From Candidatus Iainarchaeum sp. (GTDB lineage: Archaea > Iainarchaeota > Iainarchaeia > Iainarchaeales > GW2011-AR10): a stretch of DNA of 46,041 nt. Under the pieces are notes generated by a model. The model had not been told where the DNA came from and searched no databases. It saw nothing but the letters and a program-made list of their open reading frames with translations. Positions 4,155 to 37,431 of this stretch are shown piece after piece. The stretch is from contig JACQJF010000039.1 of the NCBI GenBank assembly GCA_016198165.1, forward strand, positions 1 through 46,041, in the 5' to 3' direction. Each line of letters starts with the position of its first letter. The stretch's first letter is position 1. Position numbers and translations under genes: made by a program.

Positions 4155-4250
4155 TATAGCAAAGAGCATAAATATTTGAACTTTATAATTGCTCTTTGCA
4201 TAATAGCAAACTGCACCAAAAATGTTCAAAAATATAAGCAGTTTGCTATA
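4155..4250. repeat. double-hairpin repeat, copy A (96 nt)
   Basis: Hairpin 1 is gcaaagagca/tgctctttgc (10 bp) with a loop containing TTTGAAC. Hairpin 2 is atagcaaactgc/gcagtttgctat (12 bp) with a loop containing GTTCAAA. The outer ends are tatagca...tgctata. It is the reverse complement of 15746..15842 apart from a 1-nt indel. Confidence 0.85.
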
Positions 4251-9637: not shown

Positions 9638-12600
9638 ATGAAGAGATTATTGCTGGTTTTTTCACTGTTTTTATTTTTCGGCCTGACTTCAGTGGCCCAG
9701 AACTCCTGCACTTACGAAAATTACTGGTATTGTTACTCGCAGGGCGAGTGCACGGGCGTTGGGCGCAACTGGTGCAGCACTTATTGTTCCTCAAGCGAGT
9801 GCCCCACTTGTTCTTCCCAAACCCCTTGGAATTGTTATGACCAGCCTTCGTGCACTGGTGCGGGCGGTTACTGGTGCAACAATTATTGCCAGTCTCAAGC
9901 ATGCCAGACTTGTTCATCACAATACCCTTCTTACTGCACTACTGAAGCAACCTGTACTTCTGCAGGCCTTTACTGGTGCAACGGATACTGCCAAAGTTCC
10001 TCGTGTGGCGGTGGAGGAGGTGGTTACTGTGGTGACGGCACGTGTAACAACAGTGAAACTTCCGGTTCGTGCCCTTCAGACTGCGGGGGAAACACATGCA
10101 GGGTAGGCTATTCTGGTTATTGTTACACTCAAGCAGATTGCACAGGCATAGGTGCCAATTGGTGCGGCAGTTGGTGTACAACCGGCAGCTGTCCCACTTG
10201 TTCTTCCCAAATGCCGGGTAATTGCAGCACGCAGTCTACTTGCACGGGGGCAGGCGCCAACTGGTGCCAGGGCGGCTCGGATTATCACTATTGCACTTCG
10301 AGTGTGTGCCCTGTCTGCTCAAGGGAATCTACGGGAAATTGTTATACCGAGGCTCAATGCACCACTGCGGGAGCCAATTGGTGCAGTGCGGGTAATAATG
10401 GCTGGTGCACTACGTCTTCGTGCCCCGTTTGTTCTTCTTCAACCCTGGGAAATTGTTATGACTCTGCCGCGTGCACCAATGCCGGTGCTTACTGGTGCAC
10501 TTCAAGCGGTGGTGGCGGTGGCTGGTGCAATAGTTCCCAGTGCCCGACCTGCAATTCCTCGAACCTGAGTTACTGCAGCACGCAGACTGACTGCACGACC
10601 GCGGGCGGCGCGTGGTGCAACGGGTATTGCTCGTACTCGTGCGGTGGCGGGGGGTACAACTACACATGCAGTTCGAACAACCCAAGCTATTGTTACTCTG
10701 AATCAGAATGCAGCACTGTTGGCGCACAGTGGTGCAAGTCAAGCGGTGGTGGCAGTGGCTGGTGCTCTTTTTCATGCCCTACTTGTTCTTCTTCGTCTGT
10801 CTGGAACTGTTATGATTCTTCTTCATGCAGTGGTGCCGGCGGCAACTGGTGCGGTTCCGGCAACAGTGCCTGGTGCAGCAGTTCTGCCTGTCCCGTTTGT
10901 TCTTCAGGCAACTATTGGAACTGTTATGACCAGGGTTCATGCACTACTGCCGGTGCACAGTGGTGCACGTCTTCTGCTGGCGGCAGTGGCTGGTGTTCAA
11001 ACTCGTGCCCTGTGTGCTCCAAGGATTCGGCGTGGAACTGTTATACCCAGGGCGAGTGCAGCACTGCGGGTGCACAGTGGTGCACAAGCGGTTATGGCTC
11101 CGGTTGGTGCTCGACTTCCTGCCCGGTCTGCTCCTCTTCTTCAACCTACAATTGTTACACTGAATCGGAATGCACTACAGCAGGCGCAGAGTGGTGCGGC
11201 ACTTACTGTTCCTCGTCATGCCCGGTTTGCAACAAGGAGCAGCCCTGGAGCTGTTACAACAAGGACGCCTGCACGGGAGCGGGGGCGCAGTGGTGCGGCA
11301 CTTATTGTTCATCCAGCTGCCCGACTTGTGCAAACTCCCAGTTGTGGAATTGCTATGACGAGTCCTCGTGCACTGGTGCAAGCGGGAGCTGGTGCGAGTC
11401 ACAAAGCATGTCCAGTTATTCTTATTCTTCGGGTTGGTGTTCATCTTCCTGCCCGACCTGCTCTTCTTCAAGCGCGTGGAATTGTTATGACGAGTCCTCG
11501 TGCACTGGTGCGAGCGGCAACTGGTGCAAGTCAGGCGGCGGCTATGGCTGGTGCTCGACTTCCTCGTGCCCTGTCTGCAGCAAGGACCAGACGTGGAGCT
11601 GCTACACCAAGTCAGACTGTACGACTGCGGGGGCCAATTGGTGCGGTTCGGAGGCAAGCGGGTGGTGCTCGACTTCCCAGTGCCCGACATGTTCTTCAAG
11701 CAATTACTGGAACTGTTATGATGACTCCTCCTGTACAAGTGCGGGTGCGAAGTGGTGCCAGACAAGCAGCGGCTCTGGGGTTTCTGGCGGCAGTTCGGGT
11801 TATTGTTCTTCAAACTGCCCCACGTGTTCTTCTTCCAGCACGTGGAATTGTTTTTCCGAGTCAACCTGCAAGGCGGCTTCCGCCAATTGGTGCACGGGCA
11901 AAGGCGGTTACGGGTGGTGCTCCACCTATAACTGCCCGTCATGCGGCAAGTCAAGCCCCGGCAACTGCTCCACGCAGGGCCAGTGCACGGGCGCGGGCCT
12001 TGAATGGTGCGATTCAGGCAGCGGTTCGGGCTGGTGCAGCACGTCCTGCCCCAAGTGCTCTTTGGAGAAACCGGGCAATTGCCTTAACCAGTCAAGCTGC
12101 ACAAGCGCGGGTGCAGAGTGGTGCGGCTCGTATTGTGTCGCGGACTCGTGCCCGTCATGTGACCTTTCAAGCCCCTGGAACTGCGTGACCGAGAGCACGT
12201 GCGCCGGCGCGGGGGGAAAATGGTGCTCTGACGCAAGCGGTGAAGGCTCTTTTTGCGGAACTTCCTGCAAAGTGTGCGAGGTTTCAAACCTCGCCAACTG
12301 CCTCTCAGAAGACTCGTGCGTGAATGTCGGGGGCAATTGGTGCGGTTCCTGGTGCAGTGACACTGCATGCCCATTGTGCGACCCGGATAAGCCCGAGAGC
12401 TGCCAGACAAAAGTCGACTGCGAAGCGGTTGGCGCCAAGTGGTGTGCGTCAAAAGACGGGGCTTTTTACTGCAGTGAAACCTGCCCAGTGTGCAATGAAA
12501 GCGAGTTGTACAATTGCTCTGACCAGGCTACCTGCAACAGCGTTGGCGGAGATTGGTGCGGTTCATATTGTTCAACAGAATGCCAGGTGTGCTCTGACGA

Positions 12601-15301
12601 GTCCCCGTGGAGCTGCCTCTCGCAGGGAGATTGTGATGCCTCCGGCGGCGAGTGGTGCGGAAGCCAGGCAGAGGGCTGGTGTTCCGAGTCATGCACGGAA
12701 TGCACCGCCGATGACTTTGCAAGCTGTGCCACCCAGTCAGAGTGCCTTGAAAGCACTGGCCAGTGGTGCGTTGACCCGGCAACAGGGACAAGTTATTGCG
12801 CAGCTTCATGCGGTGCATGTTCAATTGAAACCCCGTGGAACTGCCTTGGCTCCGCCGACTGCGGGGCGACAGGCGGGACCTGGTGCGGTTCTTATTGCTC
12901 GGCAGGTTCCTGCAGTGAATGCAAACAAGACCACCCGTGGAACTGCGCAAGCTTTAGTTCATGCGAGGAAATAGGCGCGAATTGGTGCCTGCCACAGGGA
13001 AGCGGGTATGGCTACTGCTCCGGCGAAGAATGCTCCAAGTGTTCCACTCAAACGCCATGGCTTTGCCTTGACGAGACAAGCTGTGTTGAAAACAGCGCCA
13101 ATTGGTGCGGAACCTACTGTTCAACCGGTTCCTGCCCTGTGTGTGACCAGCAAACACTTTCCAATTGCTTTACCAAGGAATCCTGCCAGGAAACGGGCGG
13201 CGATTGGTGCGTTTCAGCCACCGCAAACAACGGCTGGTGCTCGAATTCCTGCCCTGTGTGCGACAAGGATTCCCCGTGGAACTGTTACTCTGAACAGGAG
13301 TGCCTCGGGGCAAACGCGCAATGGTGCGCAAGCAGCGGCAGTTCAAGCGCCCAAAACACTTCTTATTACGCCGGTTCCTCCTATTGTTCCAATTCTTGCC
13401 CGACCTGTTCAACCGAAACCGCTTGGAATTGCGGCGACAAGGACTCGTGCCTCTCAAACGGCGGCAACTGGTGCGGGAATTACTGCTCCACTTCTTCGTG
13501 CCCGATTTGTTCTCCCGACTCGCAGTGGTACTGTTACACGGAGCAGGCCTGCCAAACGGCAGGCGGCAATTGGTGCAACTCGCACTGCTCCTCAAGCACA
13601 TGCCCGGTTTGCACAGGCGAAGACCCGTGGAGTTGTTACAGCCAGGAATCCTGCACAGAAGCAGGAGCCCAGTGGTGCGGAACCTATTGTTCTACAAACT
13701 GCCCTTCGTGCAGCAATGATTCCTCGTGGAATTGCTCCACGAAAGAAACCTGCCTTGGCGTCGGCGCCAATTGGTGCGCCACTTATTGTTCCACCCAGGC
13801 GTGCCCCCAGTGCACAGGCGAAAACCCCTGGGCATGCACGGACGAAGAAACCTGCGGTGGTGTGAGTGGCAATTGGTGCCAACCCACTTGGGAGGGAGGG
13901 AAAGGATGGTGCACGGATTACTCGTGCCCCGCTCCGCAATTGTACGCGGTGTGCGGTGACGCGGCATGTGAAAGCGGCCTTGGCGAAAACAGCCTTAACT
14001 GCTCCAGGGATTGTGAAGCACAGCCGCCAGTGACTGCTTCCCTTGACTGCCGTGACGTGCTTGACGAGGCAACAGGCTTCACCAGGACAGAGTGCACAGG
14101 CGGGCCAGTTGAAGAGCACGTGTGCTTTGAAGAACCCCAAGGAGTGCTTGATACTTGTTTGTCTGTAGGTGGAATACCGGAAAACCTGGTTGACGAGTTC
14201 GGCTGCCCACTCACAAACTGCGTCCTGCCTGGTGCGACAGAGGAGATTTTCCTTGAAAAAGAATGCCTGCCACAAGAACAGGTAGACTTGTTTGTTTCCG
14301 AGTGTGAAAAAAACGGGTTAAAACCGGTGGTTGAGGCGGGCATTGACGGGTGCTTTGAACCGCGCTGTGAAGGGCATGAAGAGACGCTCACAGAGTCATG
14401 CAGGCAATACACGCCGGAAGAAATAAGCGAGGCGGAAAACAATTGCGCAGTGCAGTTAGGTGCCCTGGATTACAGGTTTAACGAGAACGGCTGCAAGGAA
14501 CCTATGTGTGTCACGCTTAACGAGAACCTGTGCTACCAGGTTCCAGAGGGGGCAAAGAAGCTCTGTGCGGCAGACGGCGGGGAAATGGTTGAAGTAAGGG
14601 ACGAGGCAGGGTGTGTGACTTACTCATACTGCCTGGGCAGTGCAGGCAGTGACTTTGAATTCGAGCCTGTGAAACAACTGCCCTCGCGCGAAGAAATAGA
14701 CGCAGTGATTGACGAGCTTGCAGGGCTCCAGGCGGCAATAGAAGTAGTCGCGGAAAAACTCGGCACCCTGAAGACATTTTTCGAATCCGCGTCAGACACC
14801 ACTAACATGCACAAGGTTGAAGTCGCAAAATCAATGCTTGAAGGCTCTGCGGAATCCCTCCGGGAAATGAGGGAGTTTTTGTTCCAGAATTCCTCATCCG
14901 TCACGGTTGAAGAACTCTCGGGATTCAGGGCGGAACTTGGGAACATAAGCAAGTCGCTTGAAAAAGCCCTCGGAGTCCTACTCGGGGCATTTGGCACTGG
15001 CACTGCGGAGGAAAACAATTGCGGCTCGAACATGGATTGCCTCCAGGATAACTTGTCGACCTGCACGCCATCAACCGCGACCCTGTTTGACACTGGAGTA
15101 ACTTTCAACGTTTCAATCGAAGGCATTGAAGGGCAAAGATGCTCCATGAACGTTGACGCGGTTGTGGATAACGAGCCATTGTCAATGGCCTGCAGGTATG
15201 CCGGGTATGCCAACGGCGCCCTGGGCGGAGAGGACACGGAAGGCTTTTTGGATTCATGTGAAGGCACTCTTTTGGAGTACATGCTCTTGAAGGTAGAGTG
15301 A
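9638..15301 (+). CDS. giant secreted cysteine-rich tandem-repeat protein (1887 aa)
   Basis: Sec signal MKRLLLVFSLFLFFGLTSVAQ, then about 36-38 modules of 33-49 aa with the pattern C-P-x-C-x7-C-x5-C-x7-(W)C-x3..17-(W/Y)C. These are followed by four 4-Cys modules, a helical Cys-free stretch and a terminal Cys-containing domain. It is the only frame with a coherent repeat architecture. Confidence 0.85.
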   Translation: MKRLLLVFSLFLFFGLTSVAQNSCTYENYWYCYSQGECTGVGRNWCSTYCSSSECPTCSSQTPWNCYDQPSCTGAGGYWCNNYCQSQACQTCSSQYPSYCTTEATCTSAGLYWCNGYCQSSSCGGGGGGYCGDGTCNNSETSGSCPSDCGGNTCRVGYSGYCYTQADCTGIGANWCGSWCTTGSCPTCSSQMPGNCSTQSTCTGAGANWCQGGSDYHYCTSSVCPVCSRESTGNCYTEAQCTTAGANWCSAGNNGWCTTSSCPVCSSSTLGNCYDSAACTNAGAYWCTSSGGGGGWCNSSQCPTCNSSNLSYCSTQTDCTTAGGAWCNGYCSYSCGGGGYNYTCSSNNPSYCYSESECSTVGAQWCKSSGGGSGWCSFSCPTCSSSSVWNCYDSSSCSGAGGNWCGSGNSAWCSSSACPVCSSGNYWNCYDQGSCTTAGAQWCTSSAGGSGWCSNSCPVCSKDSAWNCYTQGECSTAGAQWCTSGYGSGWCSTSCPVCSSSSTYNCYTESECTTAGAEWCGTYCSSSCPVCNKEQPWSCYNKDACTGAGAQWCGTYCSSSCPTCANSQLWNCYDESSCTGASGSWCESQSMSSYSYSSGWCSSSCPTCSSSSAWNCYDESSCTGASGNWCKSGGGYGWCSTSSCPVCSKDQTWSCYTKSDCTTAGANWCGSEASGWCSTSQCPTCSSSNYWNCYDDSSCTSAGAKWCQTSSGSGVSGGSSGYCSSNCPTCSSSSTWNCFSESTCKAASANWCTGKGGYGWCSTYNCPSCGKSSPGNCSTQGQCTGAGLEWCDSGSGSGWCSTSCPKCSLEKPGNCLNQSSCTSAGAEWCGSYCVADSCPSCDLSSPWNCVTESTCAGAGGKWCSDASGEGSFCGTSCKVCEVSNLANCLSEDSCVNVGGNWCGSWCSDTACPLCDPDKPESCQTKVDCEAVGAKWCASKDGAFYCSETCPVCNESELYNCSDQATCNSVGGDWCGSYCSTECQVCSDESPWSCLSQGDCDASGGEWCGSQAEGWCSESCTECTADDFASCATQSECLESTGQWCVDPATGTSYCAASCGACSIETPWNCLGSADCGATGGTWCGSYCSAGSCSECKQDHPWNCASFSSCEEIGANWCLPQGSGYGYCSGEECSKCSTQTPWLCLDETSCVENSANWCGTYCSTGSCPVCDQQTLSNCFTKESCQETGGDWCVSATANNGWCSNSCPVCDKDSPWNCYSEQECLGANAQWCASSGSSSAQNTSYYAGSSYCSNSCPTCSTETAWNCGDKDSCLSNGGNWCGNYCSTSSCPICSPDSQWYCYTEQACQTAGGNWCNSHCSSSTCPVCTGEDPWSCYSQESCTEAGAQWCGTYCSTNCPSCSNDSSWNCSTKETCLGVGANWCATYCSTQACPQCTGENPWACTDEETCGGVSGNWCQPTWEGGKGWCTDYSCPAPQLYAVCGDAACESGLGENSLNCSRDCEAQPPVTASLDCRDVLDEATGFTRTECTGGPVEEHVCFEEPQGVLDTCLSVGGIPENLVDEFGCPLTNCVLPGATEEIFLEKECLPQEQVDLFVSECEKNGLKPVVEAGIDGCFEPRCEGHEETLTESCRQYTPEEISEAENNCAVQLGALDYRFNENGCKEPMCVTLNENLCYQVPEGAKKLCAADGGEMVEVRDEAGCVTYSYCLGSAGSDFEFEPVKQLPSREEIDAVIDELAGLQAAIEVVAEKLGTLKTFFESASDTTNMHKVEVAKSMLEGSAESLREMREFLFQNSSSVTVEELSGFRAELGNISKSLEKALGVLLGAFGTGTAEENNCGSNMDCLQDNLSTCTPSTATLFDTGVTFNVSIEGIEGQRCSMNVDAVVDNEPLSMACRYAGYANGALGGEDTEGFLDSCEGTLLEYMLLKVE
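9707..13925 (+). repeat. in-frame tandem array of ~100-150-nt coding repeats
   Basis: The codon series TGCCC(N)(N)(N)NTG(C/T)... recurs, encoding CPxCS...WNCY...C..AGa.WC...GWCS.S. Neighbouring units can be near-identical over about 45 nt (for example 11351-11400 vs 11484-11533). Confidence 0.8.
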
Positions 15302-15306
15302 AAAAA

Positions 15307-15708
15307 ATGCGCCAGGTTGAATTGTTTGGCAGGAAAGTCGACGCGATTGTCATAATAGCAGTAGTCACGATAATCGCGGGCCTCGCTTTTTATGCTTACA
15401 CCGGCTTGTCCCCAAAGCAGGGAAAACCGTCAGGGGAGCTTGAGCAGCAGATAGCGGAGAGGATAAAAGCCGGGATTTCCGTGGACTCAAAGGAGGACGC
15501 GCGCGACTCGATTGCCTCAATCAGCCAGGAGCTGGAAAACCTCCGCGGAGCGGTCTCAAAAGCAAACAATGGCCTTGAAGGAAAACCATCGACCGGCCCC
15601 ACGGGCCTCGTGTTCTTTGCGCAAGTCGCGATAACCCTGGCAATCCTTGCCTCGCTTGCCGCACTCCTATTCCACTTCGCAGTCACGCGCGGAAAAAACC
15701 TCAAATAA
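15307..15708 (+). CDS. two-TM membrane protein (N- and C-terminal anchors)
   Basis: ATG 15307 lies 6 nt after the giant gene's stop; the tracked ORF starts at GTG 15298, overlapping that stop. It has an N-terminal helix AIVIIAVVTIIAGLAFYAY, a hydrophilic helical middle, and a C-terminal helix LVFFAQVAITLAILASLAALLFHFAV plus a basic tail TRGKNLK. Confidence 0.6.
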   Translation: MRQVELFGRKVDAIVIIAVVTIIAGLAFYAYTGLSPKQGKPSGELEQQIAERIKAGISVDSKEDARDSIASISQELENLRGAVSKANNGLEGKPSTGPTGLVFFAQVAITLAILASLAALLFHFAVTRGKNLK

Positions 15709-15709
15709 G
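15670..15709 (+). repeat. 40-nt direct repeat, copy 1 (3' end of CDS 15307..15708)
   Basis: ttccacttcgcagtcacgcgcggaaaaaacctcaaataag differs at one position from 16681..16720. The last 31 nt are identical. Confidence 0.9.
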
Positions 15710-15745
15710 TTTTTATATTTGGCCCAATAACAAACCGCCAGTATC

Positions 15746-15842
15746 TATAGCAAACTGCTTATATTTTTGAACATTTTTGGTGCAGTTTGCTATTTATGCA
15801 AAGAGCAATTATAAAGTTCAAATATTTATGCTCTTTGCTATA
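15746..15842. repeat. double-hairpin repeat, copy B (97 nt; inverted relative to copy A)
   Basis: It is the reverse complement of 4155..4250 with one extra t (gctatttatgc vs gctattatgc). It lies between convergent gene ends, 37 nt after direct-repeat copy 1. Confidence 0.85.
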
Positions 15843-15863
15843 TGTCTACCCTTATTTTCACTT

Positions 15864-16250
15864 TTATGCAATAGCTTTTATTTCCGCCAGTTTCTTAGGC
15901 TTTAGATTTACGAGCGGCAGTATGAGAATCTCTTTTGTAACTTTTGGTAGAATGTTTTTTCCTTTCTTTTCCAGTTCAATTATGCGGAATTTTTCCAATA
16001 GTTTCAAATCCCTTAAAACAGCGCTAAGCTGTCTGCCAGTCAGCTCACTTAGTTTTGTGGCATTTTTTGGTTTTTTGGCCTGGATCAGCCTCACCAGTTC
16101 CAGTCTTTTCTTTGTGAAAACTCGTGTTATCTCATCATCAGACAGGCTAAGCAAAATGCCCTCATCCGGGTACTTGCCCGGGTTTTTGAATACCCTGTCA
16201 AGGTAGTGTTTTACTGAATTCCATCTTTCATCAGTCATTTTATACGCCAT
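15864..16250 (-). CDS. HTH DNA-binding protein (putative antitoxin/regulator)
   Basis: 128 aa. A winged-helix segment is RLELVRLIQAKKPKNATKLSELTGRQLSAVLRDLKLLEKFRIIELEKKGKN. It starts 6 nt after the stop of the upstream 109-aa gene. Confidence 0.6.
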   Translation of the reverse strand: MAYKMTDERWNSVKHYLDRVFKNPGKYPDEGILLSLSDDEITRVFTKKRLELVRLIQAKKPKNATKLSELTGRQLSAVLRDLKLLEKFRIIELEKKGKNILPKVTKEILILPLVNLKPKKLAEIKAIA

Positions 16251-16256
16251 TTTTTT

Positions 16257-16586
16257 TCACCTCAGCTTCATTCTATCTAAATAATATTTTTTGTATCTTT
16301 CAAAGTTTTCTTTTATTTGATCCAAATAAAAATTGAAAATGTCATTCAAGTCCTTTCCCATGGCCGGAATAGGGATTGGCTCTGGCGTAATCCAATATCT
16401 TTGTTCATGCAAAAACCCATGTGCAGTGTCAACCCTGTAAACCTCGTAAAAACTTTCCTCTATTTTTGTCCTGTAATTCAGCGCAAACGCTTCCACTATA
16501 TTGTTTTCAATTTTGAGTTTTACGTCGAGGAAATCCATTGAAGTCAAGGGGATTGTAAACTTTTTCCACTTTATCACGACAACCAC
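16257..16586 (-). CDS. small protein, putative toxin partner (DUF6516/TumE-like is only a guess)
   Basis: 109 aa with a GTG start. The motif YRVDTAHGFLHEQRYW and the pairing with a downstream HTH gene resemble type II TA layouts. The family name comes from memory of the motif style only. Confidence 0.4.
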   Translation of the reverse strand: MVVVIKWKKFTIPLTSMDFLDVKLKIENNIVEAFALNYRTKIEESFYEVYRVDTAHGFLHEQRYWITPEPIPIPAMGKDLNDIFNFYLDQIKENFERYKKYYLDRMKLR

Positions 16587-16595
16587 GCATATTAA

Positions 16596-16612
16596 TATAC
16601 ATTAAATGTATA
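16596..16612. promoter_or_regulatory. perfect 8-1-8 palindrome in the cassette promoter
   Basis: tatacatt-a-aatgtata lies 10-26 nt upstream of the GTG at 16586 (minus strand). It is a candidate operator and/or TATA region. Confidence 0.35.
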
Positions 16613-16653
16613 GTATTGTTTTTAAACAGTTCTGTAATTTAGGGGTTGTTTAA

Positions 16654-16719
16654 AAAATTGTCTCCATTGCAGCGCTTTTGTTCCACTTTGCAGTCACGCG
16701 CGGAAAAAACCTCAAATAA
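16654..16719 (+). pseudogene. displaced 3' end fragment homologous to the C-terminus of CDS 15307..15708
   Basis: It encodes KIVSIAALLFHFAVTRGKNLK*, compared with the intact ...ASLAALLFHFAVTRGKNLK*. Upstream of the 40-nt repeat the differences are mostly synonymous (gca gcg ctt ttg vs gcc gca ctc cta). It is preceded by an in-frame TAA and has no start codon. Confidence 0.6.
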
Positions 16720-16720
16720 G
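16681..16720 (+). repeat. 40-nt direct repeat, copy 2
   Basis: ttccactttgcagtcacgcgcggaaaaaacctcaaataag. See copy 1. Confidence 0.9.
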
Positions 16721-16755
16721 CTTATATACCAGTTTAACCGTTTTTTTTTTTTTGC

Positions 16756-18603
16756 ATGAAGAATTTGTTTTTCCTCTTTTTACTGTCATTTGTTTTTTTT
16801 GGTTGCATAACCGATTCCGCTTTTACAGGACAGGGCTTGGCTCCAACCAGGAACCTTGCTCCGTCTGCCCAGCCTGATAGCACTCTGGAAAATTATTTGG
16901 TTCCGGCTTTAGAGCCAGTGAACCCGCCACAAGAGCCTGAAACTGAACAAACTGTTTCTGAGGAAGAAAACGTTTTAACTGGTGAATTTGAGGAGCCATT
17001 CAGAATTTCAATAGATGATTTGATAGCAGAGACAGGCTATGTACCGGATCAAACCGGTGGAGAAAGTGAACCCATAAGAAAGCCTAGTACGCCACCACGT
17101 CACTTGTGGAATGCATATGCATTGGAAGGGGTTTCTAATAGTACTTTTACAATGCCGAAAGTCGCTGACTTGGATGGTGATGGTACTAAAGAAATTGTTT
17201 CTGCTTTGATGAGTGCTGATAATACGGGGTATTGTCATGAGGTAATTAAGCAGGGTATTTATACGTGGGATGAACAAGGGCAACTTTTGGAAGGTTTTCC
17301 TGTTTATCTTGAAACACTGAATTACCCCGATAATTGTGGCGGTCTTTCAATCGTAGGAATTGCAGATGTTATCGGCAGCAACAAACTTGAAATTGTGGTT
17401 GCTACTGGGAATGGGTCCATGCCGCGAGGTGGGGTTTATGTCATATCGAACACTGGAAGAGTTATTAGTAAAATCGCCACTAACGTACATTTTTCAGGTG
17501 GTGATATCTGGCACCCTATTTTAGTTAACTTGGATGAGGATGAGAAAAAAGAAATAGTTGCAATAAGACCTCAAAGACCTCTACAAATTAATGGTAAAAT
17601 ATATGCCTGGAATGGAGATGGAACCACTCTTGATGGCTGGCCAGTTTCATTTTTAGGAGAAGATTATGTTTATGATGGGGCAGCAGATGATGTAGATGGT
17701 GATGGGCAAATAGAGCTTTTTTTTCCATCATCGTTTCGTATTGACGATGCTCATTTTGGTGCTCGTCTAAGATCTTACCAGCCAAATGGTACGTTGAACT
17801 GGGTTGTAGATCTTCCCTTTGGGGGGGTTTCTCCGGGGAAAATCATCTTAGCAGATGTAGATCAAGATGGCTCAAAAGAACTGATTATAACGGTGTTCAG
17901 ACAACGTGAGCCAAACGAACATTCTGAAAAGTTAATTGCAATCATTAACTCTGCTGATGGCAGCCTAAAAAATTTTTGGCCGAATCTTAATGGTTATAGC
18001 TATTACGGTAACTTAGCCGTTGGGAATATGGATTCAGACAAAGAGTTAGAAATATTGTATACTGATGTTTACAACATATACGTAGCCGATGCAAATGATG
18101 GCACTCAATTGCCGGGATTTCCAAGGCATTTATGGGATGATGGTTCTTCAGATCCTCCAAATTGGGACATACCTGCAAAAGATTGTGTTGGAAGACCACC
18201 TTATTGCTATGCAACTTCTATAGGAGTTGCTGACCTCATTGGTGATACTAAACAAGAAATATTTACTTTTGCATATAGTTATCTGCCCAGTAATAGACGG
18301 GAGCCAGAGTCTTATTTTATGAGTTTTTTTGCTTTTGACAGCAGTGGTCATACTCTTCCAGGCTTTCCATTTCACTTGAAAAACTATGTTTACGTTCCCG
18401 ATAATGTAGGGTATAGTTGGGGCGAAATAGCTCCTCCAACTTTCACAAATTTAGGTAATGATGGCCTCTCAGACATTGTAACCTCTAAAGGGTTTGGCAG
18501 AATAGAGGCATTCACCATTAACAACACTTATAACGAATCTTTAGCAATTGTTCCGGAATTTGGTGTTGACAGGCAAAATACAAGAACCGTAAAACAGAAT
18601 TAA
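16756..18603 (+). CDS. secreted FG-GAP/VCBS-repeat beta-propeller protein
   Basis: Signal peptide plus FFGC. Seven Ca-binding-like repeats are present: DLDGDGTKEIV, NLDEDEKKEIV, DVDGDGQIELF, DVDQDGSKELI, NMDSDKELEI, DLIGDTKQEIF, NLGNDGLSDIV. Each is preceded by GFP/GWP motifs. Confidence 0.8.
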   Translation: MKNLFFLFLLSFVFFGCITDSAFTGQGLAPTRNLAPSAQPDSTLENYLVPALEPVNPPQEPETEQTVSEEENVLTGEFEEPFRISIDDLIAETGYVPDQTGGESEPIRKPSTPPRHLWNAYALEGVSNSTFTMPKVADLDGDGTKEIVSALMSADNTGYCHEVIKQGIYTWDEQGQLLEGFPVYLETLNYPDNCGGLSIVGIADVIGSNKLEIVVATGNGSMPRGGVYVISNTGRVISKIATNVHFSGGDIWHPILVNLDEDEKKEIVAIRPQRPLQINGKIYAWNGDGTTLDGWPVSFLGEDYVYDGAADDVDGDGQIELFFPSSFRIDDAHFGARLRSYQPNGTLNWVVDLPFGGVSPGKIILADVDQDGSKELIITVFRQREPNEHSEKLIAIINSADGSLKNFWPNLNGYSYYGNLAVGNMDSDKELEILYTDVYNIYVADANDGTQLPGFPRHLWDDGSSDPPNWDIPAKDCVGRPPYCYATSIGVADLIGDTKQEIFTFAYSYLPSNRREPESYFMSFFAFDSSGHTLPGFPFHLKNYVYVPDNVGYSWGEIAPPTFTNLGNDGLSDIVTSKGFGRIEAFTINNTYNESLAIVPEFGVDRQNTRTVKQN

Positions 18604-18827
18604 GCAACTCTAAGTCAACATTTTTTTCCCCATTAGATTTTTATGCTTCTTTCCAGCTTTCTATTTTCCTGCTTTCTGCGTGCATAAGCGCGGGCTGCCA
18701 AAAAAACTTTTTCAGTCCAAAAGCTTTTATATGTATTTTTACATATGGTTGTATGTATTTTTACTAGTGGTGTTTTTTTGTGGAATTTGGCGAAACGGAT
18801 TCAAAGGTTCCAAAATCAGGAATAGCT

Positions 18828-19280
18828 ATGGAAAGAGCCCTAAATGGCTGCATCAAAAGAAAGAGAATCCAGGGCTTCTCCAAAGAGGATGCCAAGACTT
18901 TTTTGGCCAAAGCACATTATCATTTGCAGACAGCAGAGTCTTTTGAATCTGACAGTTTCTTGGACTGGGCAGTAATTGCTTATTATTCCGGCATGTACAT
19001 GGCGGCTAAAGCTTTTACCGCGCATTTTTCTGGCACTGCTGCAAAAGACCATGGCTGCACTATCGCCTTAATGCTCCAGGTTTTGAAGGGAAAAAAGTTT
19101 GCCAAAAAGCTTGGCAGCGCGAGAAAAAAATTTGAGCAGGAGATAGAACTGCTTGGAAAAGTAAGGCAGTACCGGAACAGCGCCTTATACACTGTCACTG
19201 AGGTTAAGGAAAACGACGTGAGAAAAATTGCAAAGAATGCTTTTGAATTCGTGGAAGAGATTGATAAACTGTTGAAGTGA
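18828..19280 (+). CDS. HEPN-domain protein
   Basis: The helical protein has AKAHYHLQTAESF... and the conserved late motif RQYRNSALY. It overlaps the downstream MNT gene (GTGA at 19277-19280). Start uncertain: ATG 18828 or GTG 18780. Confidence 0.7.
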   Translation: MERALNGCIKRKRIQGFSKEDAKTFLAKAHYHLQTAESFESDSFLDWAVIAYYSGMYMAAKAFTAHFSGTAAKDHGCTIALMLQVLKGKKFAKKLGSARKKFEQEIELLGKVRQYRNSALYTVTEVKENDVRKIAKNAFEFVEEIDKLLK

Positions 19281-19900
19281 GCGAAAAAATGCTGTTGCAA
19301 AAGTCAAGACAAAGGGTTCTTTCTGCAATTCTCCGGAACCCAGGCATACATGTAAATGGGCTGATAAGGCTGGTGGGTTCGCTTAGAGGTATCAAGGGAA
19401 TTTTGGATGAACTTGAGAAAGCCGGGTTGATTTATTCAAAGCACGTTGGAAACATAAGGCAGATTTTTCCATTGCTTGGCAGCTCTTTCAGCGTTTCAAC
19501 TTTTGAATTGGTTGAAGAACAGGAAAAACAGGGTGTCATGTCAAAGTTTTCAATAGCTAAAAGTCTTGTCGGGCGTATTGATTTATTCAAAAAGATTTTT
19601 GGCCAAGAACTTGTTTCCATTGCGCTTTTTGGTTCAATAGCGAGGGGGCATTTAACTGAAACATCCGACATAGATATATTGTTCATTGTCAAAAAGGAAA
19701 AAACAGTGCAAAAAAACAAATTGGTCAAATTGTTTCAGACAATCAGCCTCAACACTGGCCGGGAAATAAACCCCGTAATAATTGAAGAAGGCGAGTTCAA
19801 AAAACAGTTGACCAAAGACAGTTCTTTTGCAAGGCAGGTGCAAAAAGAAAGGATAATACTGTGCAATCCAAAGGAATTCCTGTCACTGCAAAACATTTGA
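19277..19900 (+). CDS. wHTH + minimal nucleotidyltransferase (MNT) protein
   Basis: An N-terminal wHTH (RVLSAILRNPGIHVNGLIRLVGS...LEKAGLI) is followed by the NTase signature LFGSIARGHLTETSDIDILFIV. An alternative ATG start is at 19289. Confidence 0.8.
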   Translation: MSEKMLLQKSRQRVLSAILRNPGIHVNGLIRLVGSLRGIKGILDELEKAGLIYSKHVGNIRQIFPLLGSSFSVSTFELVEEQEKQGVMSKFSIAKSLVGRIDLFKKIFGQELVSIALFGSIARGHLTETSDIDILFIVKKEKTVQKNKLVKLFQTISLNTGREINPVIIEEGEFKKQLTKDSSFARQVQKERIILCNPKEFLSLQNI

Positions 19901-19972
19901 AGGTTTGCCTTATTCGGGCTTTTTTTTAGCCTGCATACTTTTTTATACTTCCTTCCCGCTTATCTATTTCCA

Positions 19973-20959
19973 ATGCTTTTGCTTGAAAAAAACGGCGTGT
20001 GCCTGAGTGCCGGCAGAGAAATTTTCGTTGACGCCACAGGTGTGCAGGAGCAAAATGTCCTGGTTACGCACGCGCACTCCGACCACTGCAGGCTGACTTC
20101 TTCAAACAGTTATTTCATGACGCCAGAGACACTTGCACTTGCGTCGCCGAAAAAAAACGTCAACGTACAGGTAAAAGAGTTCGGGGAAAAATTCATGGTG
20201 AACGGCTTTGACGTTTCAATGCACCCGTCAGGCCACATTCTTGGCTCTGCACAGCTTGCCATTGCAAACGGAGTTGAAGCAGTAATAACTTCTGACTTCA
20301 AGTTACAGGAAAGCCTTTTGCTCAAGCCCGCAGAGATTTTGCCGTGCGAGGTCCTGCTCATTGAAACCACTTTTGGCCTGAGGGAATTTTCTTTTCCACC
20401 CCGCGAAGAAGTTTACACAGAAATGGCGAAATGGGCAAAGGAAAAAATTGCCAGCGGTGCTTTTGTAGTCCTTGCTGGCTATGCCACGGGAAAAGCCCAG
20501 GAGCTCACGCGCTTTTCCAACGACTACTTATCAACCGCGCCTCTTGTGCATTCAAGCGTGTTTGAAAAAAACATGTTGGCAAAAAAAGCGGGTGCAAGGC
20601 TTGGGGATTTTGTCGAACTTGACCATAACTTGGGTGACTCGAGCGTTTTGATAATCCCGCCAAGCCTTTTGAACAATTTTCTTTTAGAGGCGCTGTCCAT
20701 GCAGCTTGGGAAAAAAGTGGAGTGCGCGGTTGCAACTGGGTGGAAACGCAGCCGTTTCAAGACTTTTCCGCTTTCAGACCACGCGGACTTTAACCAGTTA
20801 TGCGAGTACGTGAAAAACGCACAGCCAAAGCTCGTGCTCACGCATCATGGTTTTGACAGGGAATTCGCCTCCTCGGTCACAAAAGAGTTCGGCATCCCTG
20901 CAAGGCCCCTGAGCGAGGCGGGGCAGAAAACCCTCTCGGAATTCCTAAATCAGGCCTGA
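19973..20959 (+). CDS. metallo-beta-lactamase-fold (beta-CASP-like) nuclease
   Basis: 328 aa with the HxHxDH motif VTHAHSDHC, a later H (SGHILGSA), and the C-terminal PLSDHADFNQL...LTHHG typical of MBL/beta-CASP exonucleases. Confidence 0.7.
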   Translation: MLLLEKNGVCLSAGREIFVDATGVQEQNVLVTHAHSDHCRLTSSNSYFMTPETLALASPKKNVNVQVKEFGEKFMVNGFDVSMHPSGHILGSAQLAIANGVEAVITSDFKLQESLLLKPAEILPCEVLLIETTFGLREFSFPPREEVYTEMAKWAKEKIASGAFVVLAGYATGKAQELTRFSNDYLSTAPLVHSSVFEKNMLAKKAGARLGDFVELDHNLGDSSVLIIPPSLLNNFLLEALSMQLGKKVECAVATGWKRSRFKTFPLSDHADFNQLCEYVKNAQPKLVLTHHGFDREFASSVTKEFGIPARPLSEAGQKTLSEFLNQA

Positions 20960-20967
20960 CCGTTCCA

Positions 20968-20990
20968 TTTTTTATTTTCTTTATATTTTA
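20968..20990 (+). promoter_or_regulatory. TATA-like box for the aspS operon (near-leaderless)
   Basis: ttttttattttctttatatttta ends 12 nt before ATG 21002. Confidence 0.35.
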
Positions 20991-21001
20991 ATTGTCTCTT
21001 A

Positions 21002-22774
21002 ATGGAAAGGACTCATTATTGCGGGAATGTCCGGGCAGTGGACGCGGGAAAGGGCGTGGTTATTTTTGGCTGGGTTAGCAACAAGCGCGACCACGGGGGC
21101 CTGACCTTCATTGACCTGCGCGACAGGGCTGGTTTTGTCCAGGTCGTGTTTAACGGCGAGAAAAACCACTCAATCCACGGGCAGGCCAAGGGGCTTTCGG
21201 CCGAAGACGTGATTTGCGTCCACGGCTCTGTCCTGAAAAGGCCCAAAGGCACGGAAAACAAGGGCCTGCCCACTGGGGAGGTCGAGGTGGAGGCAAAAAC
21301 ACTTGAACTATTGAACAAGTCGCTTCCTGTGCCCCTTGAGGTCACCGAGCACGTCAATGCAAGCGAGGAAACAAGGCTCAAGTACCGTTTTTTGGACCTG
21401 CGAAGGCATTCAATGCAGGAAAAACTCCTGCTCCGGCACAAGCTAACAAAGGTCGTACGGGACTATTTTGACTCGCACGGCTTTTTGGAGATAGAGACCC
21501 CGATTCTTGCCAAGTCAACTCCTGAAGGGGCGCGCGATTACCTTGTCCCAAGCAGGGTTAACCCGGGCAGGTTTTTTGCCCTCCCCCAGAGCCCCCAGTT
21601 ATTCAAGCAACTCTTAATGGTTTCAGGCTGCGACCGGTACTTCCAGATAGCGCGGTGTTTCCGCGACGAGGACCTGCGCGCCGACCGCCAGCCGGAATTC
21701 ACCCAGATTGACGTTGAAATGAGTTTTATTTCCGAGGAAGACATTTTTGAAATCGTCGAGGGCCTCGTGAAAGAAATTTTTTCAAAGACAATCAACGTTC
21801 AGCTCAAACAGCCGTTTCCGCGGATGTCTTATGACGAGGCAATGGAGCGCTTTGGAGTTGACGCCCCAGACACGCGCTATGGCCTTGAGCTTGTGGATGT
21901 TTCAAAAGAAGTTGAAAATTCCGATTTCAATGTTTTCAAGGACTGCCTCAAGTCCGGTGGCATGGTCAAGTCAATCAACCTCAAGTCGTGCGGCGGTTTT
22001 TCGAAAAAAGAAATCGAGGAACTGACCGAGTTTGTGAAAATCTACAAGGCAAAGGGCCTTGCATGGCTCGTGCATTCAAAGCAGGGCTTTGACGGCCCCG
22101 TTAAAAAGTTTTTTCCCAAAAAAACCCTTGACTTGCTTGCAAAAAAACTCGGCGCAGGCGAAAACGATTTATTGGTTTTTGTCGCAGACAAGCCTTCAAT
22201 TGTAAATCCTGCGTTGGGGTATCTGCGCAAGCACGTGGCAAAAAAAACCGGGCTTGTGAAAGAAAACGTTTTCAACTTTGTCTGGGTGTACGAGTTCCCA
22301 CTTTTGTTTTTCAATGAAGAAGAAAACCGCCTTGAGTCAATGCACCATCCTTTCACTTCTCCAAAACCAGAACACGTTCCACTCCTGGAAAAGGAGCCAT
22401 TGAAAGTTCGGGCGCGCGCATATGACCTCGTGCTCAACGGCATTGAATTGGGGGGCGGGAGCATCAGGATACACTCAACGGAACTTCAGCAGAAAATGTT
22501 TGACGTGCTTGGAATTTCCAGGCCGGAAGCCGAGGCGCGCTTTGGTTTTTTCCTCGAAGCACTAAAATACGGTACTCCGCCGCATGGTGGAATCGCGTTT
22601 GGCCTGGATCGGATTGCAATGCTCCTTGCAGGCGCTGACTCTATCCGCGAGGTCATTGCTTTTCCAAAGAACAAGTCAGCGGTTTCGCTCATGGATGGCG
22701 CGCCAAGCGAGGTTTCAGAAAAACAGCTTCGCGAACTTCGTATAAAGCTTGATTTTTCACAGAAAAAGGGGTGA
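21002..22774 (+). CDS. aspS: aspartyl-tRNA synthetase, bacterial-type (with insertion domain)
   Basis: 590 aa: an OB-fold N-terminus, class II motifs (FFALPQSPQLFKQLLM, FRDEDLRADRQPEFTQID, GGGSIRIH, PPHGGIAFGLDR) and an approximately 130-aa insertion between motifs 2 and 3. Confidence 0.9.
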   Translation: MERTHYCGNVRAVDAGKGVVIFGWVSNKRDHGGLTFIDLRDRAGFVQVVFNGEKNHSIHGQAKGLSAEDVICVHGSVLKRPKGTENKGLPTGEVEVEAKTLELLNKSLPVPLEVTEHVNASEETRLKYRFLDLRRHSMQEKLLLRHKLTKVVRDYFDSHGFLEIETPILAKSTPEGARDYLVPSRVNPGRFFALPQSPQLFKQLLMVSGCDRYFQIARCFRDEDLRADRQPEFTQIDVEMSFISEEDIFEIVEGLVKEIFSKTINVQLKQPFPRMSYDEAMERFGVDAPDTRYGLELVDVSKEVENSDFNVFKDCLKSGGMVKSINLKSCGGFSKKEIEELTEFVKIYKAKGLAWLVHSKQGFDGPVKKFFPKKTLDLLAKKLGAGENDLLVFVADKPSIVNPALGYLRKHVAKKTGLVKENVFNFVWVYEFPLLFFNEEENRLESMHHPFTSPKPEHVPLLEKEPLKVRARAYDLVLNGIELGGGSIRIHSTELQQKMFDVLGISRPEAEARFGFFLEALKYGTPPHGGIAFGLDRIAMLLAGADSIREVIAFPKNKSAVSLMDGAPSEVSEKQLRELRIKLDFSQKKG

Positions 22775-28290: not shown

Positions 28291-29238
28291 TCAATGTTTT
28301 TGTATTTGCCTGTAATTTTCTTTGATTTGTTCCACTAAAAACTTTGTGAAACCTTTATAGTTTTGGTTGTGCCCTTCTTCCTGGGCTTGGAAGTATTCAT
28401 CCCTTTTTTTTACGGGTATATTAGTGAACGGAAACCCGTTTTTTTGAAGTATATAATTCATCAGGAGTCGTGCCATTCTGCCGTTCCCGTCAGCGAAGGG
28501 GTGTATTGTTGTGAATGAACAGTGAAGTTTTGCCGCTAGTTCCACTGGATGAACCGATTGTTTCTGTTTGTTGTATTGTTCAATGAGCTTTTTCATTAAA
28601 GCGGGCACATGCTTGAAGTGGGGGAATTCAAATTTGCTTGTTCTTATTTCCACGTCAACAGGCCTCCATATTCCTTTGTACTTGTCATAATCGGGAACCT
28701 CGTTGAGCAGAATATAGTGGAGCTGAAGAATCATCACGTCGTCAATTTTCCTGTCGATTTTTAGGTATTGGTCATACCGTTCAAGGCATTTTTCCATATT
28801 CAGGACTTCCAGTCTTTCCCTTTCACTGCCTATTTTGATTTTTTTGTGGAGTATTTTTTTGGTTTCGTCAAGGGTCAGGGTTGAGCCTTCTATTGCGTTG
28901 GTATTTGTGATGAACTTGTCCCTTTCAGCTTCAAGCCACTTTTTTTTCTCGCTTGTACTGAGGCCTTGTATGAACTCTGTGGTTTCTTGTTTTATCCTTT
29001 CAAGTGATTTTGCTGTTTTAACGTCGATGAATTCAGTGCCCTGCTTGACCAATTCGGTCTGGTAGTACTCCTCAATTTGCTTTCGGATGTTTTTTTCATG
29101 GCCCCCAAGCGTTGTTTTTGTGGGTTTTTTGTGTCCAAGATATTCTGAGAATTTTTTGAATTCTTTTCCTATCCTGATGTTTTGCTCCAGGTAGTAATAA
29201 GTTTTGCCTTTTACTTTCCTGCTGACTAGATAGGCCAT
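28291..29238 (-). CDS. Fic/DOC-family protein (AMPylase-type motif)
   Basis: Fic motif HPFADGNGRMARL. The N-terminus MAYLVSRKVKGKTYYYLEQ is paralogous to the second Fic protein. A TATA-like ttttataaatt lies about 27 nt upstream of ATG 29238. Confidence 0.85.
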   Translation of the reverse strand: MAYLVSRKVKGKTYYYLEQNIRIGKEFKKFSEYLGHKKPTKTTLGGHEKNIRKQIEEYYQTELVKQGTEFIDVKTAKSLERIKQETTEFIQGLSTSEKKKWLEAERDKFITNTNAIEGSTLTLDETKKILHKKIKIGSERERLEVLNMEKCLERYDQYLKIDRKIDDVMILQLHYILLNEVPDYDKYKGIWRPVDVEIRTSKFEFPHFKHVPALMKKLIEQYNKQKQSVHPVELAAKLHCSFTTIHPFADGNGRMARLLMNYILQKNGFPFTNIPVKKRDEYFQAQEEGHNQNYKGFTKFLVEQIKENYRQIQKH

Positions 29239-29294
29239 AAAAGTTATAACCACAAAACAATTTATAAAAGGTGGTGATAACTTGTTCAGATTGG

Positions 29295-29423
29295 TCAGTC
29301 TACTGCGGTCAGGAAGTTGTAAAAGAAAAGCATCATTCCTGTGAACGCATACAAGTAAAGTGCGATAAAAATAATCCCCACAATTATGCTCGCTCCCAGC
29401 ACTATTTTGAAAATTAACCCCAT
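29295..29423 (-). CDS. 42-aa hydrophobic mini-protein (below the ORF-track cutoff)
   Basis: MGLIFKIVLGASIIVGIIFIALYLYAFTGMMLFFYNFLTAVD. Its ATG overlaps the last 10 nt of the upstream PLC-like gene. I translated it by hand, so it is only a candidate. Confidence 0.3.
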   Translation of the reverse strand: MGLIFKIVLGASIIVGIIFIALYLYAFTGMMLFFYNFLTAVD

Positions 29424-30100
29424 AAGTATCGCTCTAGTGTTTGCAGGCAAGTTTCTATTGCGGTTTTTTTGAACTCTTTTAAGTAACTGCTTAAATTATT
29501 GTTTTTGTCAATCAGTTGTTTTATCAGTGATTCCTCAACATGGCTTGGGGAGAAGCTTAAGGTGTCTATTCCAGGTTCTCTCATGTAAAGTGCGGTTCCT
29601 GCCCTGTAAAGTTGAATGTCACTTTGGCTGTATCCAAGTTGCCGTAAAACACTTGTGTCATTGGCTCTTGAAATATTTCCGGCGCATTGGAATTGGAAGA
29701 ACCAGTCTGCCTCTCCCTGGAAGTAGTCATCTACTGCCAAATACAAAGCAAGCTTATGAACGGTGTTATTTGGATTGACACCGTAATTTTCGTAAATGCT
29801 TTTGCTCATCGAGTTATTGTCATTTGCCCAAATGGTATCCACTACTAAGTGGGTTTCATATCCTGCCATGAAAGGCATTGAGGTGCTGCTTGCTTTCAGT
29901 GCTTCAAAAATCGATTTTTCCCCTAATGGTTTGTGGGTAATTTCTCTTGGGGTGTTGTTGATGTATCTTATGTCGGGTGCTATTGCGCCGAAAAAATAAT
30001 CGTCAATGTTCTCGTATTTTGAAATAAAGTTTCTCTTTGAAATCTTTTTCAGGACAAGGTTCGCAATCCATTCGTGAGTCAGCAATCCGGCCAAATGCAC
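29414..30100 (-). CDS. zinc-dependent phospholipase C-like (PLC/S1-P1 fold) protein, tentative
   Basis: 228 aa. Features are the N-terminal HLAGLLTHEWIA, FGAIAPDIRY, THKP and ETHLVVD histidine/aspartate pattern reminiscent of PF00882-type proteins. It sits 29 nt downstream of the Fic gene stop. Confidence 0.45.
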   Translation of the reverse strand: MHLAGLLTHEWIANLVLKKISKRNFISKYENIDDYFFGAIAPDIRYINNTPREITHKPLGEKSIFEALKASSTSMPFMAGYETHLVVDTIWANDNNSMSKSIYENYGVNPNNTVHKLALYLAVDDYFQGEADWFFQFQCAGNISRANDTSVLRQLGYSQSDIQLYRAGTALYMREPGIDTLSFSPSHVEESLIKQLIDKNNNLSSYLKEFKKTAIETCLQTLERYLWG

Positions 30101-30129
30101 TACCTCTCATACAAAAATGCTTTTCAGGA

Positions 30130-31134: not shown

Positions 31135-31199
31135 AAGAATAATTAACACCAAAAACTATAAAAATAGTTATTTTGTACCAAGTTGGTGTTAACTGAGGA

Positions 31200-37294: not shown

Positions 37295-37383
37295 GGGCCC
37301 GTAGCTTAGCCTGGTGGAGCATCCGACTGATAATGTTTAGAGCGGTGATCGGAAGGTCCTCTGTTCAAATCAGAGCGGGCCCA
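37295..37383 (+). tRNA. tRNA-Ile (anticodon GAT) with a 15-nt intron at the canonical 37/38 position
   Basis: Hand fold: acceptor GGGCCCG/CGGGCCC, D stem GCTT/GAGC, anticodon stem TCCGA/TCGGA, loop CTGATA[intron ATGTTTAGAGCGGTG]A, variable AGGTC, T arm CTCTG-TTCAAAT-CAGAG, discriminator A. No CCA is encoded. Confidence 0.85.
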
Positions 37384-37431
37384 CTTTCTTTTTACACCAA
37401 GTTTTACACTTGGGTTTTTGGGATCCCTTGC

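Follow-up and report, generated by a model that had tools for sequence, protein, structure and literature searches.

We describe a small gene cassette in the archaeon Candidatus Iainarchaeum sp. that lies between two copies of the 3' end of a neighbouring gene. The window, that is, the whole stretch of DNA analysed, is the 46,041-nt contig JACQJF010000039.1 (GenBank assembly GCA_016198165.1). The gene whose end is duplicated encodes a small protein with two putative transmembrane (TM) segments and is called here the two-TM gene; the cassette carries a gene of the DUF7718 family and one for a winged helix-turn-helix (wHTH) regulator (Table 1). With a confidence somewhat above even, we read the 1,011-nt period set by the two gene ends as the footprint of a mobile module of about 750-850 nt, made up of the DUF7718 and wHTH genes and their promoter, whose insertion into the two-TM gene, within its final 60-70 nt, would have duplicated a long piece of the target.

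The displaced gene end and the insert

The two copies form a direct repeat of 71 nt with 85% identity, spaced 1011 nt apart. Within it a stretch of 40 nt (15670-15709 and 16681-16720) has a single mismatch, C at 15678 against T at 16689, and direct reading of the window finds no difference at all in the 31-nt core GCAGTCACGCGCGGAAAAAACCTCAAATAAG, which recurs at 16690-16720; the chance expectation of an exact 31-nt repeat in 46 kb is about 1e-10. An earlier note on this DNA, made from its letters only, had given the 40-nt and 31-nt lengths, the single mismatch and the spacing, and direct reading and the repeat finder bear out all of them. Copy 1 spans the final 62 nt of the two-TM gene, stop codon included, and 9 nt beyond. 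In copy 2 the corresponding frame is open only from 16654 to 16719, where it reads KIVSIAALLFHFAVTRGKNLK before the stop codon, compared with ILASLAALLFHFAVTRGKNLK at the end of the intact gene; this frame lacks a plausible start codon and is not part of a larger open reading frame (ORF). The view of this second copy as the displaced end of a real gene is thus upheld. The earlier note had further proposed that the incoming DNA supplied a replacement gene end, and here it was mistaken: because the identical block extends through the stop codon, the cassette does not supply the coding end of the gene, and the gene-end piece that it carries is a superfluous, diverged extra fragment of the two-TM gene. 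The two-TM protein itself has no Pfam match and few homologues, which are 77-87% identical to it. The T13 run beyond copy 2 is likely an archaeal oligo-T terminator.

Table 1. Features of the insertion site and of the cassette (positions in the window; L007 and L099 are related loci and AR10 a related genome, all described in the text; MITE, miniature inverted-repeat transposable element)
Feature	Position	Strand	Description and basis
Double hairpin, copy A	4155..4250		inverted relative to copy B; differs by one T
Two-TM gene (target)	15307..15708	+	133 aa, two hydrophobic segments; intact end LLFHFAVTRGKNLK, then stop; ORF list
Direct repeat copy 1 (attL-like)	15647..15717	+	repeat finder (family D20), alignment
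Identical 31-nt block, inferred crossover region (15670-15709 allowing for the C/T mismatch)	15679..15709	+	direct reading
Left cassette arm	15718..15745, resumes 15843-15863 beyond the MITE		common to the window and L099
Double hairpin, copy B	15746..15842		97 nt; DNA fold z = -5.4; repeat finder (I1/I2)
wHTH regulator, second gene of module	15864..16250	-	128 aa; PF25212 (HVO_A0114), ArsR/SmtB-like; E = 2e-15
DUF7718 gene, first gene of module	16257..16586	-	106-109 aa; PF24839, E = 1e-12
Perfect 17-nt palindrome TATACATTAAATGTATA in promoter region	16596..16612		direct reading; conserved in L007 and AR10
Right cassette arm up to the gene-end fragment	16613..16657		same junction in L007
Direct repeat copy 2 (attR-like), displaced gene end	16658..16728	+	direct reading, repeat finder, alignment
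T13 run	16741..16753	+	follows the gene end in the empty-site form
FG-GAP repeat protein gene, right neighbour of the insertion site	16756..18603	+	Pfam scan; ATG at 16756, directly after T13

The insert between the repeats is 940 nt long and consists of two genes and a MITE-like double hairpin, with no transposase or integrase. Both genes lie on the minus strand, 6 nt apart, and the palindrome in front of them is presumed to be the operator of the module. For the DUF7718 protein 52 homologues were retrieved. Its AlphaFold (AF2) model, built with 26 homologues, is confident (pLDDT 91.7); it has five strands and a long C-terminal helix and finds no fold match in the PDB (best E-value 0.7). Nor did NCBIfam, PADLOC or the PDB yield a match to a known toxin family or fold. 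The residues that are invariant in the family alignment, among them D50, H53, H57, E58 and several Tyr, are candidates for an active site; an HUH/Rep-like reading of the protein, suggested by the motifs FSLNY and LHEQ, was dropped, the AF2 model being without any PDB match. The wHTH protein also matches the ArsR/SmtB-like model NF033788 of NCBIfam at 2e-6, below the cut-off of that model. Neither cassette protein convincingly matches a PADLOC defence model, an Rfam search of the cassette and the double hairpin returned nothing, a literature search on DUF7718 and HVO_A0114 found no paper, and look-ups of the exact products (the 128-aa and 124-aa wHTH proteins and the 109-aa DUF7718 protein) found nothing on record; the protein cluster to which the DUF7718 protein of the window belongs consists of a single member on a single contig. 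The earlier note had called the gene pair toxin-antitoxin (TA)-like, with a palindromic promoter of its own. What stands of this is the two small genes, the wHTH domain and the palindrome; the likeness to TA pairs is one of architecture. By analogy with restriction-modification and TA modules, the DUF7718-wHTH pair probably acts as a selfish unit of the addiction type, which after insertion would secure its own maintenance, and a function of this kind would explain why the pair persists.

The double hairpin had been counted among the contents of the cassette. It does lie between the repeats, but it is no original part of what was inserted: the related locus L099 has the same cassette arm without the hairpin, which makes the hairpin the younger of the two, and L099 shows at about 520-535 a TA-rich, unoccupied site. 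Judged by its features, the hairpin is a later and unrelated insertion of a putative MITE into the arm. Its likeness to MITEs lies in its shortness (97 nt), its non-coding sequence and its terminal inverted repeats (TATAGCAAA...TTTGCTATA), in having nearly identical copies within a single genome and another, diverged one in a relative (84.5% identical, at 826-919 of L008, from a related metagenome-assembled genome, MAG), and in the empty site in L099. It differs in that no parent or cognate transposase was found, in that the target-site duplication is ambiguous (TA or TATA at the junctions) and in that only two or three copies were seen.

Occupied and empty sites, and repeats across the family

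A Logan contig from run SRR12113384 (L001), in which the two-TM gene is 100% identical to that of the window, has an empty site. It consists of window positions 10589-15709 followed without a gap by 16690-21239, its two flanks match the window at 100% identity, and the gene end stands directly before the T-run and the FG-GAP gene. This is precisely the arrangement that the earlier note had suggested looking for, and together with the repeat and the dead copy it supports an insertion that entered the two-TM gene at its 3' end and left the gene intact. The contigs of two further runs, SRR12113383 and SRR12113385 (L002 and L003, two-TM gene again 100% identical), have the filled left junction and end inside the hairpin. 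There is a caveat: Logan contigs come from a de Bruijn assembly with k = 31, and the identical core is exactly 31 nt long. Were all cells occupied at equal coverage, two paths would lead into the shared 31-mer and two out of it, and the contig should break there; L001 runs for 9.6 kb through it, which suggests that the empty form dominates in that run. L002 and L003, on the other hand, cross the same 31-mer into the cassette, so the graphs of those runs must be incomplete and an artefact is possible. On balance, the polymorphism between occupied and empty sites is probably real.

More distant relatives of the locus vary at the same place. L099 (ENA groundwater, two-TM identity 87%) has the same left cassette arm followed by the wHTH gene, and in L005 (Logan, 84%) the wHTH gene begins 10 nt past the two-TM stop codon. 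In L004 (Logan, 77%) the gene that comes directly next encodes a 328-aa beta-CASP-like protein (window 19973-20959); there is no cassette and none of the FG-GAP, HEPN and minimal nucleotidyltransferase (MNT) genes. L006 (ENA, 85% over 56% of the query, with a 75-aa called product) is arranged as L004. The MAG contig JAUSEO010000043.1 from GTDB (L007/L008) carries the cassette with a remnant of the gene end (L007 3548-4410), and no intact two-TM gene was seen there. The cassette/remnant junction is identical to that of the window, and the remnant precedes the 328-aa gene, the position held by the intact two-TM gene in L004 and L006; at the opposite end of the cassette, 8 nt separate the wHTH stop codon from the end of an FG-GAP gene. 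The L007 MAG holds no second copy of the pattern encoding FHFAVTRGKN, and hence no intact two-TM gene with that C-terminus was detected in it; the back-translated pattern found nothing in the JGI metagenomes and, among the GTDB species representatives, only L007. There are, then, cassette-free relatives, and the second repeat copy of the window lies outside any functional ORF; the earlier note had named the opposite of each as grounds for abandoning an insertion.

The cassette also occurs elsewhere, as that note had proposed to check: in L099, L005 and L007, in the AR10 genome of Ca. Iainarchaeum (CP010424) and at about 70 other loci. In AR10 an 86% identical module lies in an unrelated neighbourhood and has no flanking repeats. 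Two other lineages thus have the module at the site that it occupies in the window, and many genomes have it at sites unrelated to this one; the intergenic space that follows the two-TM gene is a hot spot whose accessory content varies. Viral contigs gave neither a DUF7718 relative nor a copy of the 31-nt core, and so no viral vehicle was found.

To obtain a broader view of the family, a profile of 26 DUF7718 proteins was used to collect 80 metagenome loci, in about 75 of which a wHTH gene follows the DUF7718 gene, and the 500-600 nt upstream of the gene pair were compared with the 500-600 nt downstream. The direct-repeat score lay above the maximum of 275 mismatched-locus controls at 12 of 55 non-redundant loci, and above their 99th percentile at 16 of the 55; in the inverted-orientation controls it never exceeded 13. 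A score of at least 20 was reached at 14 of 56 real positions, as against 1 of 115 pseudo-cassettes shifted by 2-3 kb within the same loci. The repeats are about 20-106 nt long and all differ in sequence (at least 11 different sequences), the exception being two genomes with one target in common. The smallest inserts, 746-825 nt, amount to the two genes and their promoter. No cassette-end motif was apparent by eye when the inner 45 nt of each arm were set side by side for 15 loci, no motif search being run.

Several of these repeats duplicate gene ends through the stop codon, as in the window. At L072 the target is a gene for a 542-aa DEAD/DEAH helicase, whose intact end reads KIVKRMARRNG and whose remnant reads KIVKRMANRRG, each before a stop codon; at L073 it is a gene for a 135-aa protein, with KKMKEKKGAVNED at the intact end and KKMKEKKGTLEVD in the remnant, again each up to the stop. 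At L026, and probably at L027, the target is the last ~58 nt of the 23S rRNA and ~50 nt downstream of it, with RNase P RNA beyond. On this other archaeal contig (L026, 302-4975) the module has the 23S rRNA 3' end on one side and the RNase P RNA gene on the other, and is flanked by a duplication of ~106 nt, of which 59 nt are exact. The cassette is co-directional with its target in L026 and convergent in the window; both orientations occur in the family.

Several other features of the neighbourhood deserve mention. Directly upstream of the two-TM gene, 9638-15301 (+) encodes a 1887-aa Cys-rich protein with dozens of ~34-aa repeats (CPxCS..WNCY..C..AG..WC), at a GC content of 55-59% that stands out from its surroundings. 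The GC-rich left block was itself considered as the insert, in place of the AT-rich cassette, and rejected as the primary explanation, since L001, L099 and L005 show the cassette to be the variable unit. To the right, 16756-19900 holds the FG-GAP gene and a HEPN-nucleotidyltransferase pair at about 40% GC and is absent in L004 and L006. An AT-rich block at 28291-31152 (-), with two Fic/DOC-domain genes and a Zn-phospholipase-C-like gene, is absent from the otherwise syntenic L004 and is probably another island. Two tandem paralogues at 33138-34508 and 34674-36065 (-), of 456 and 463 aa and with a period of 1560 nt, have stretches that are 75-96% identical and no Pfam match. Finally, there is a tRNA gene of 89-90 nt at 37295-37384 (+), called by ARAGORN as Tyr with anticodon ATA and confirmed as a tRNA by Rfam; its length suggests an intron or a miscalled anticodon.

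The mosaic repeat and possible routes of insertion

The mismatches between the two repeat copies are unevenly placed: there are 11 in 71 nt, and under uniform scatter a perfect run of at least 31 nt has a probability of about 0.011. The variable part of the remnant (..IVSIAALL..) is of the allele type found in L004 and in the L007 remnant ([IL]VS[LI]A..), whereas the resident gene is of the type of L005, L006 and L099 (LA[SG]LA..). To the left of the core, the remnants of the window and of L007 differ at only 2 of 33 positions; in the core, the remnant of the window is the same as the resident gene and differs from the L007 remnant at 5 of 31 positions. L099 has a T at the mismatch position, as has copy 2, so that the ancestral identical block would have been at least 40 nt long. 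The simplest reading of this mosaic would be a reciprocal crossover within the conserved block, between the resident gene end and a foreign gene-end fragment borne by the cassette.

The mosaic therefore favours, by inference, a Campbell-type crossover of a circle that carried the cassette and a gene-end fragment. Recombination between the flanking repeats would free such a circle, composed of the cassette, its arms and one hybrid repeat, and would regenerate the empty site seen in L001. The module might then travel as a non-replicating circle (or an equivalent fragment) bearing one copy of a host gene end, and a single homologous crossover with an unoccupied orthologous gene end, here within 15670-15709, would re-create the duplication. 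This crossover would probably be the work of host homologous recombination and not of a dedicated integrase. Such a cycle would explain at once the mosaic repeat, the junction that the window and L007 have in common despite their outer contexts, and the absence of a recombinase. How a new target first comes to be duplicated would be best accounted for by template switching or by the filling-in of a staggered break.

A number of observations weigh against this account. A later allele replacement to the left of 15679 would also yield the mosaic, and circle and crossover explain the spread among relatives that share the target but not the first duplication at a new one. L007 has no left repeat copy and the left arm of L005 differs. 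No circular form or attP-type junction was encountered, none of the 99 loci having terminal overlaps; the search for a circular form recommended by the earlier note thus came back empty. About 75% of the related loci, AR10 among them, have no flanking repeat. L001 has no single-nucleotide polymorphisms (SNPs) relative to the window, and with a core of length k a short-cut through the graph could have produced it. As for the nature of the module, DUF7718 has no family or fold likeness to known toxins, and a toxin or addiction role is assigned to it by analogy.

The last but one of these points is also where a far more sceptical explanation begins, namely that nothing has moved here: the arrangement would be ancestral or a one-off rearrangement, the empty contig a graph artefact and the other repeats coincidental. 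Besides the match between core and k, the missing SNPs and the incomplete graphs implied by L002 and L003, it can point to the fact that no Logan contig encodes the DUF7718 protein of the window. We nevertheless hold it to be highly improbable, given that the cassette is present in L099, L005 and L007 and missing from L004 and L006, that the AR10 module sits in an unrelated neighbourhood, that flanking repeats are in strong excess over both kinds of control and that several repeats elsewhere duplicate gene ends through the stop codon. A duplication in situ is a better contender, if still a somewhat unlikely one. A staggered double-strand break, or template switching resembling microhomology-mediated break-induced replication (MMBIR), would have made a perfect 71-nt copy, and the mosaic would have come later, when the GC-rich left part (to about 15678) was replaced by homologous import; the GC content, 52-59% on the left of the repeat, falls to about 40% on its right, a strong step that fits an imported left segment. 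Staggered breaks and template switches yield repeats that vary among loci in length and sequence, they need no pre-existing gene-end fragment in the cassette to reach new targets, and a mechanism of the same class has been proposed for restriction-modification units (PMC2853133). Yet the remnant differs in allele type from the resident gene, the window and L007 have the same cassette/remnant junction in different outer contexts, which is easier to understand if cassette and remnant move together, and no enzyme for staggered cleavage was identified.

The earlier note saw in the locus the classic footprint of site-specific integration, by a recombinase encoded elsewhere if the cassette was not a mere remnant. 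Its statement that the cassette carries no integrase is confirmed by Pfam scans: neither an integrase nor a transposase turned up in the cassette or among the 30 ORFs scanned in the window. The tyrosine or serine recombinase that it had suggested looking for elsewhere was not among these ORFs either. A sharp identical core with diverged flanks does resemble an att core, an empty site exists, and a repeat of 40-71 nt in a 3'-distal gene position is typical of archaeal integrative elements (PMC6563490), all of which would suit an integrase-less satellite, or a decayed element of the cis-mobilizable (CIME) kind between attL and attR, served by a recombinase in trans. We consider this quite unlikely. 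The relatives carry at least 11 different repeats of 20-106 nt, in both orientations, there is no conserved sequence at the cassette ends for a recombinase to recognise, and the repeats hug a 750-nt two-gene unit at many independent loci, which would not be expected from the random decay of larger elements. Since a single two-gene unit has so many variable, target-derived repeats, no conserved ends and no recombinase, classic site-specific integration is unsupported: the data support an insertion that enters a gene end and regenerates it, and do not support a dedicated site-specific integrase. A last possibility, which we think distinctly improbable, is that the DUF7718-wHTH pair is an autonomous minimal element in which DUF7718, with its novel fold, itself cuts or joins DNA and drives the insertion of its own 750-nt cassette, the target being duplicated over a long and variable length. 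If this were so, DUF7718 would define a new class of recombinase-independent archaeal mobile elements and would be the first enzyme tied to insertion with long target duplication.

Comparison with known systems

Among archaeal elements that encode an integrase, crenarchaeal att sites are 29-69 bp long, and 14 of 68 thaumarchaeal integrated mobile genetic elements (iMGEs) lie in the 3' ends of protein genes (PMC6563490); judged from the letters only, the reading of the earlier note was therefore a reasonable one. The locus described here resembles them in its repeats of tens of nucleotides, in the 3' gene end that is kept intact and in the displaced partial copy at the far junction; it differs in having no integrase, in an insert of only ~0.8-1 kb and in that related cassettes have no common att core. 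In other words, it has flanking repeats and a single-copy empty site, without a recombinase of its own or a reused att core. Integron gene cassettes are a poorer match, as there is neither a conserved cassette-end element nor an integrase and the flanking repeats derive from the target. The integron, integrative mobile element exploiting Xer (IMEX/Xer) and casposon readings were rejected: what flanks the cassette is variable, comes from the target and is accompanied by no attC, dif or terminal inverted repeat. With the type II TA systems that place the toxin first and an HTH antitoxin second (higBA- or mqsRA-like), the gene pair has in common small co-directional genes 6 nt apart, a wHTH gene in second place, a palindromic operator and a patchy, mobile distribution. 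It departs from them in that DUF7718 matches no known toxin family or fold, toxicity being proposed by analogy.

The mechanism of insertion with long target duplication is, to our knowledge, not known. Such insertion of restriction-modification units was reportedly described in bacteria by Nobusato et al. in 2000 (Gene 259:99). Furuta, Abe & Kobayashi (2010, NAR 38:2428, PMC2853133) found restriction-modification units with long, variable target duplications and no mobility genes, on the criteria of an insert shorter than 20 kb, no mobility genes, a duplication longer than 30 bp and an empty site in a relative. The repeats often spanned start or stop codons, a virus-like cycle of insertion, amplification and release was proposed, and no archaeal case survived the screen (PMC2853133). 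The window has a duplication of more than 30 bp, an insert of less than 20 kb without mobility genes and an empty site in L001, for which an assembly artefact is possible. As in the bacterial cases, a small unit of the selfish type lacks a transposase or integrase, the repeats are long and variable and span stop or start codons, a relative has the empty site, and the life cycle proposed leads from insertion to a release by way of the repeats. Here, however, the cargo is DUF7718 and wHTH without restriction-modification genes, so that the cassette is not a member of the class as originally defined; the hosts belong to the DPANN archaea; the signature recurs within one gene family (at ~25% of loci); and the repeat is a mosaic of two allele types that points to a homologous crossover. 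How TA-like and other small selfish modules move without mobility genes is poorly understood, and the DUF7718 module offers a compact test system of ~750 nt for asking whether they spread as circles through host recombination or through an activity of their own; the window adds a mosaic repeat in which a crossover can be mapped and, within a single population, a probable polymorphism of occupied and empty sites, and DUF7718 itself merits characterisation. This is the first case of this rare kind of insertion that we can document for an archaeal module without restriction-modification genes, and one that recurs across a single gene family.

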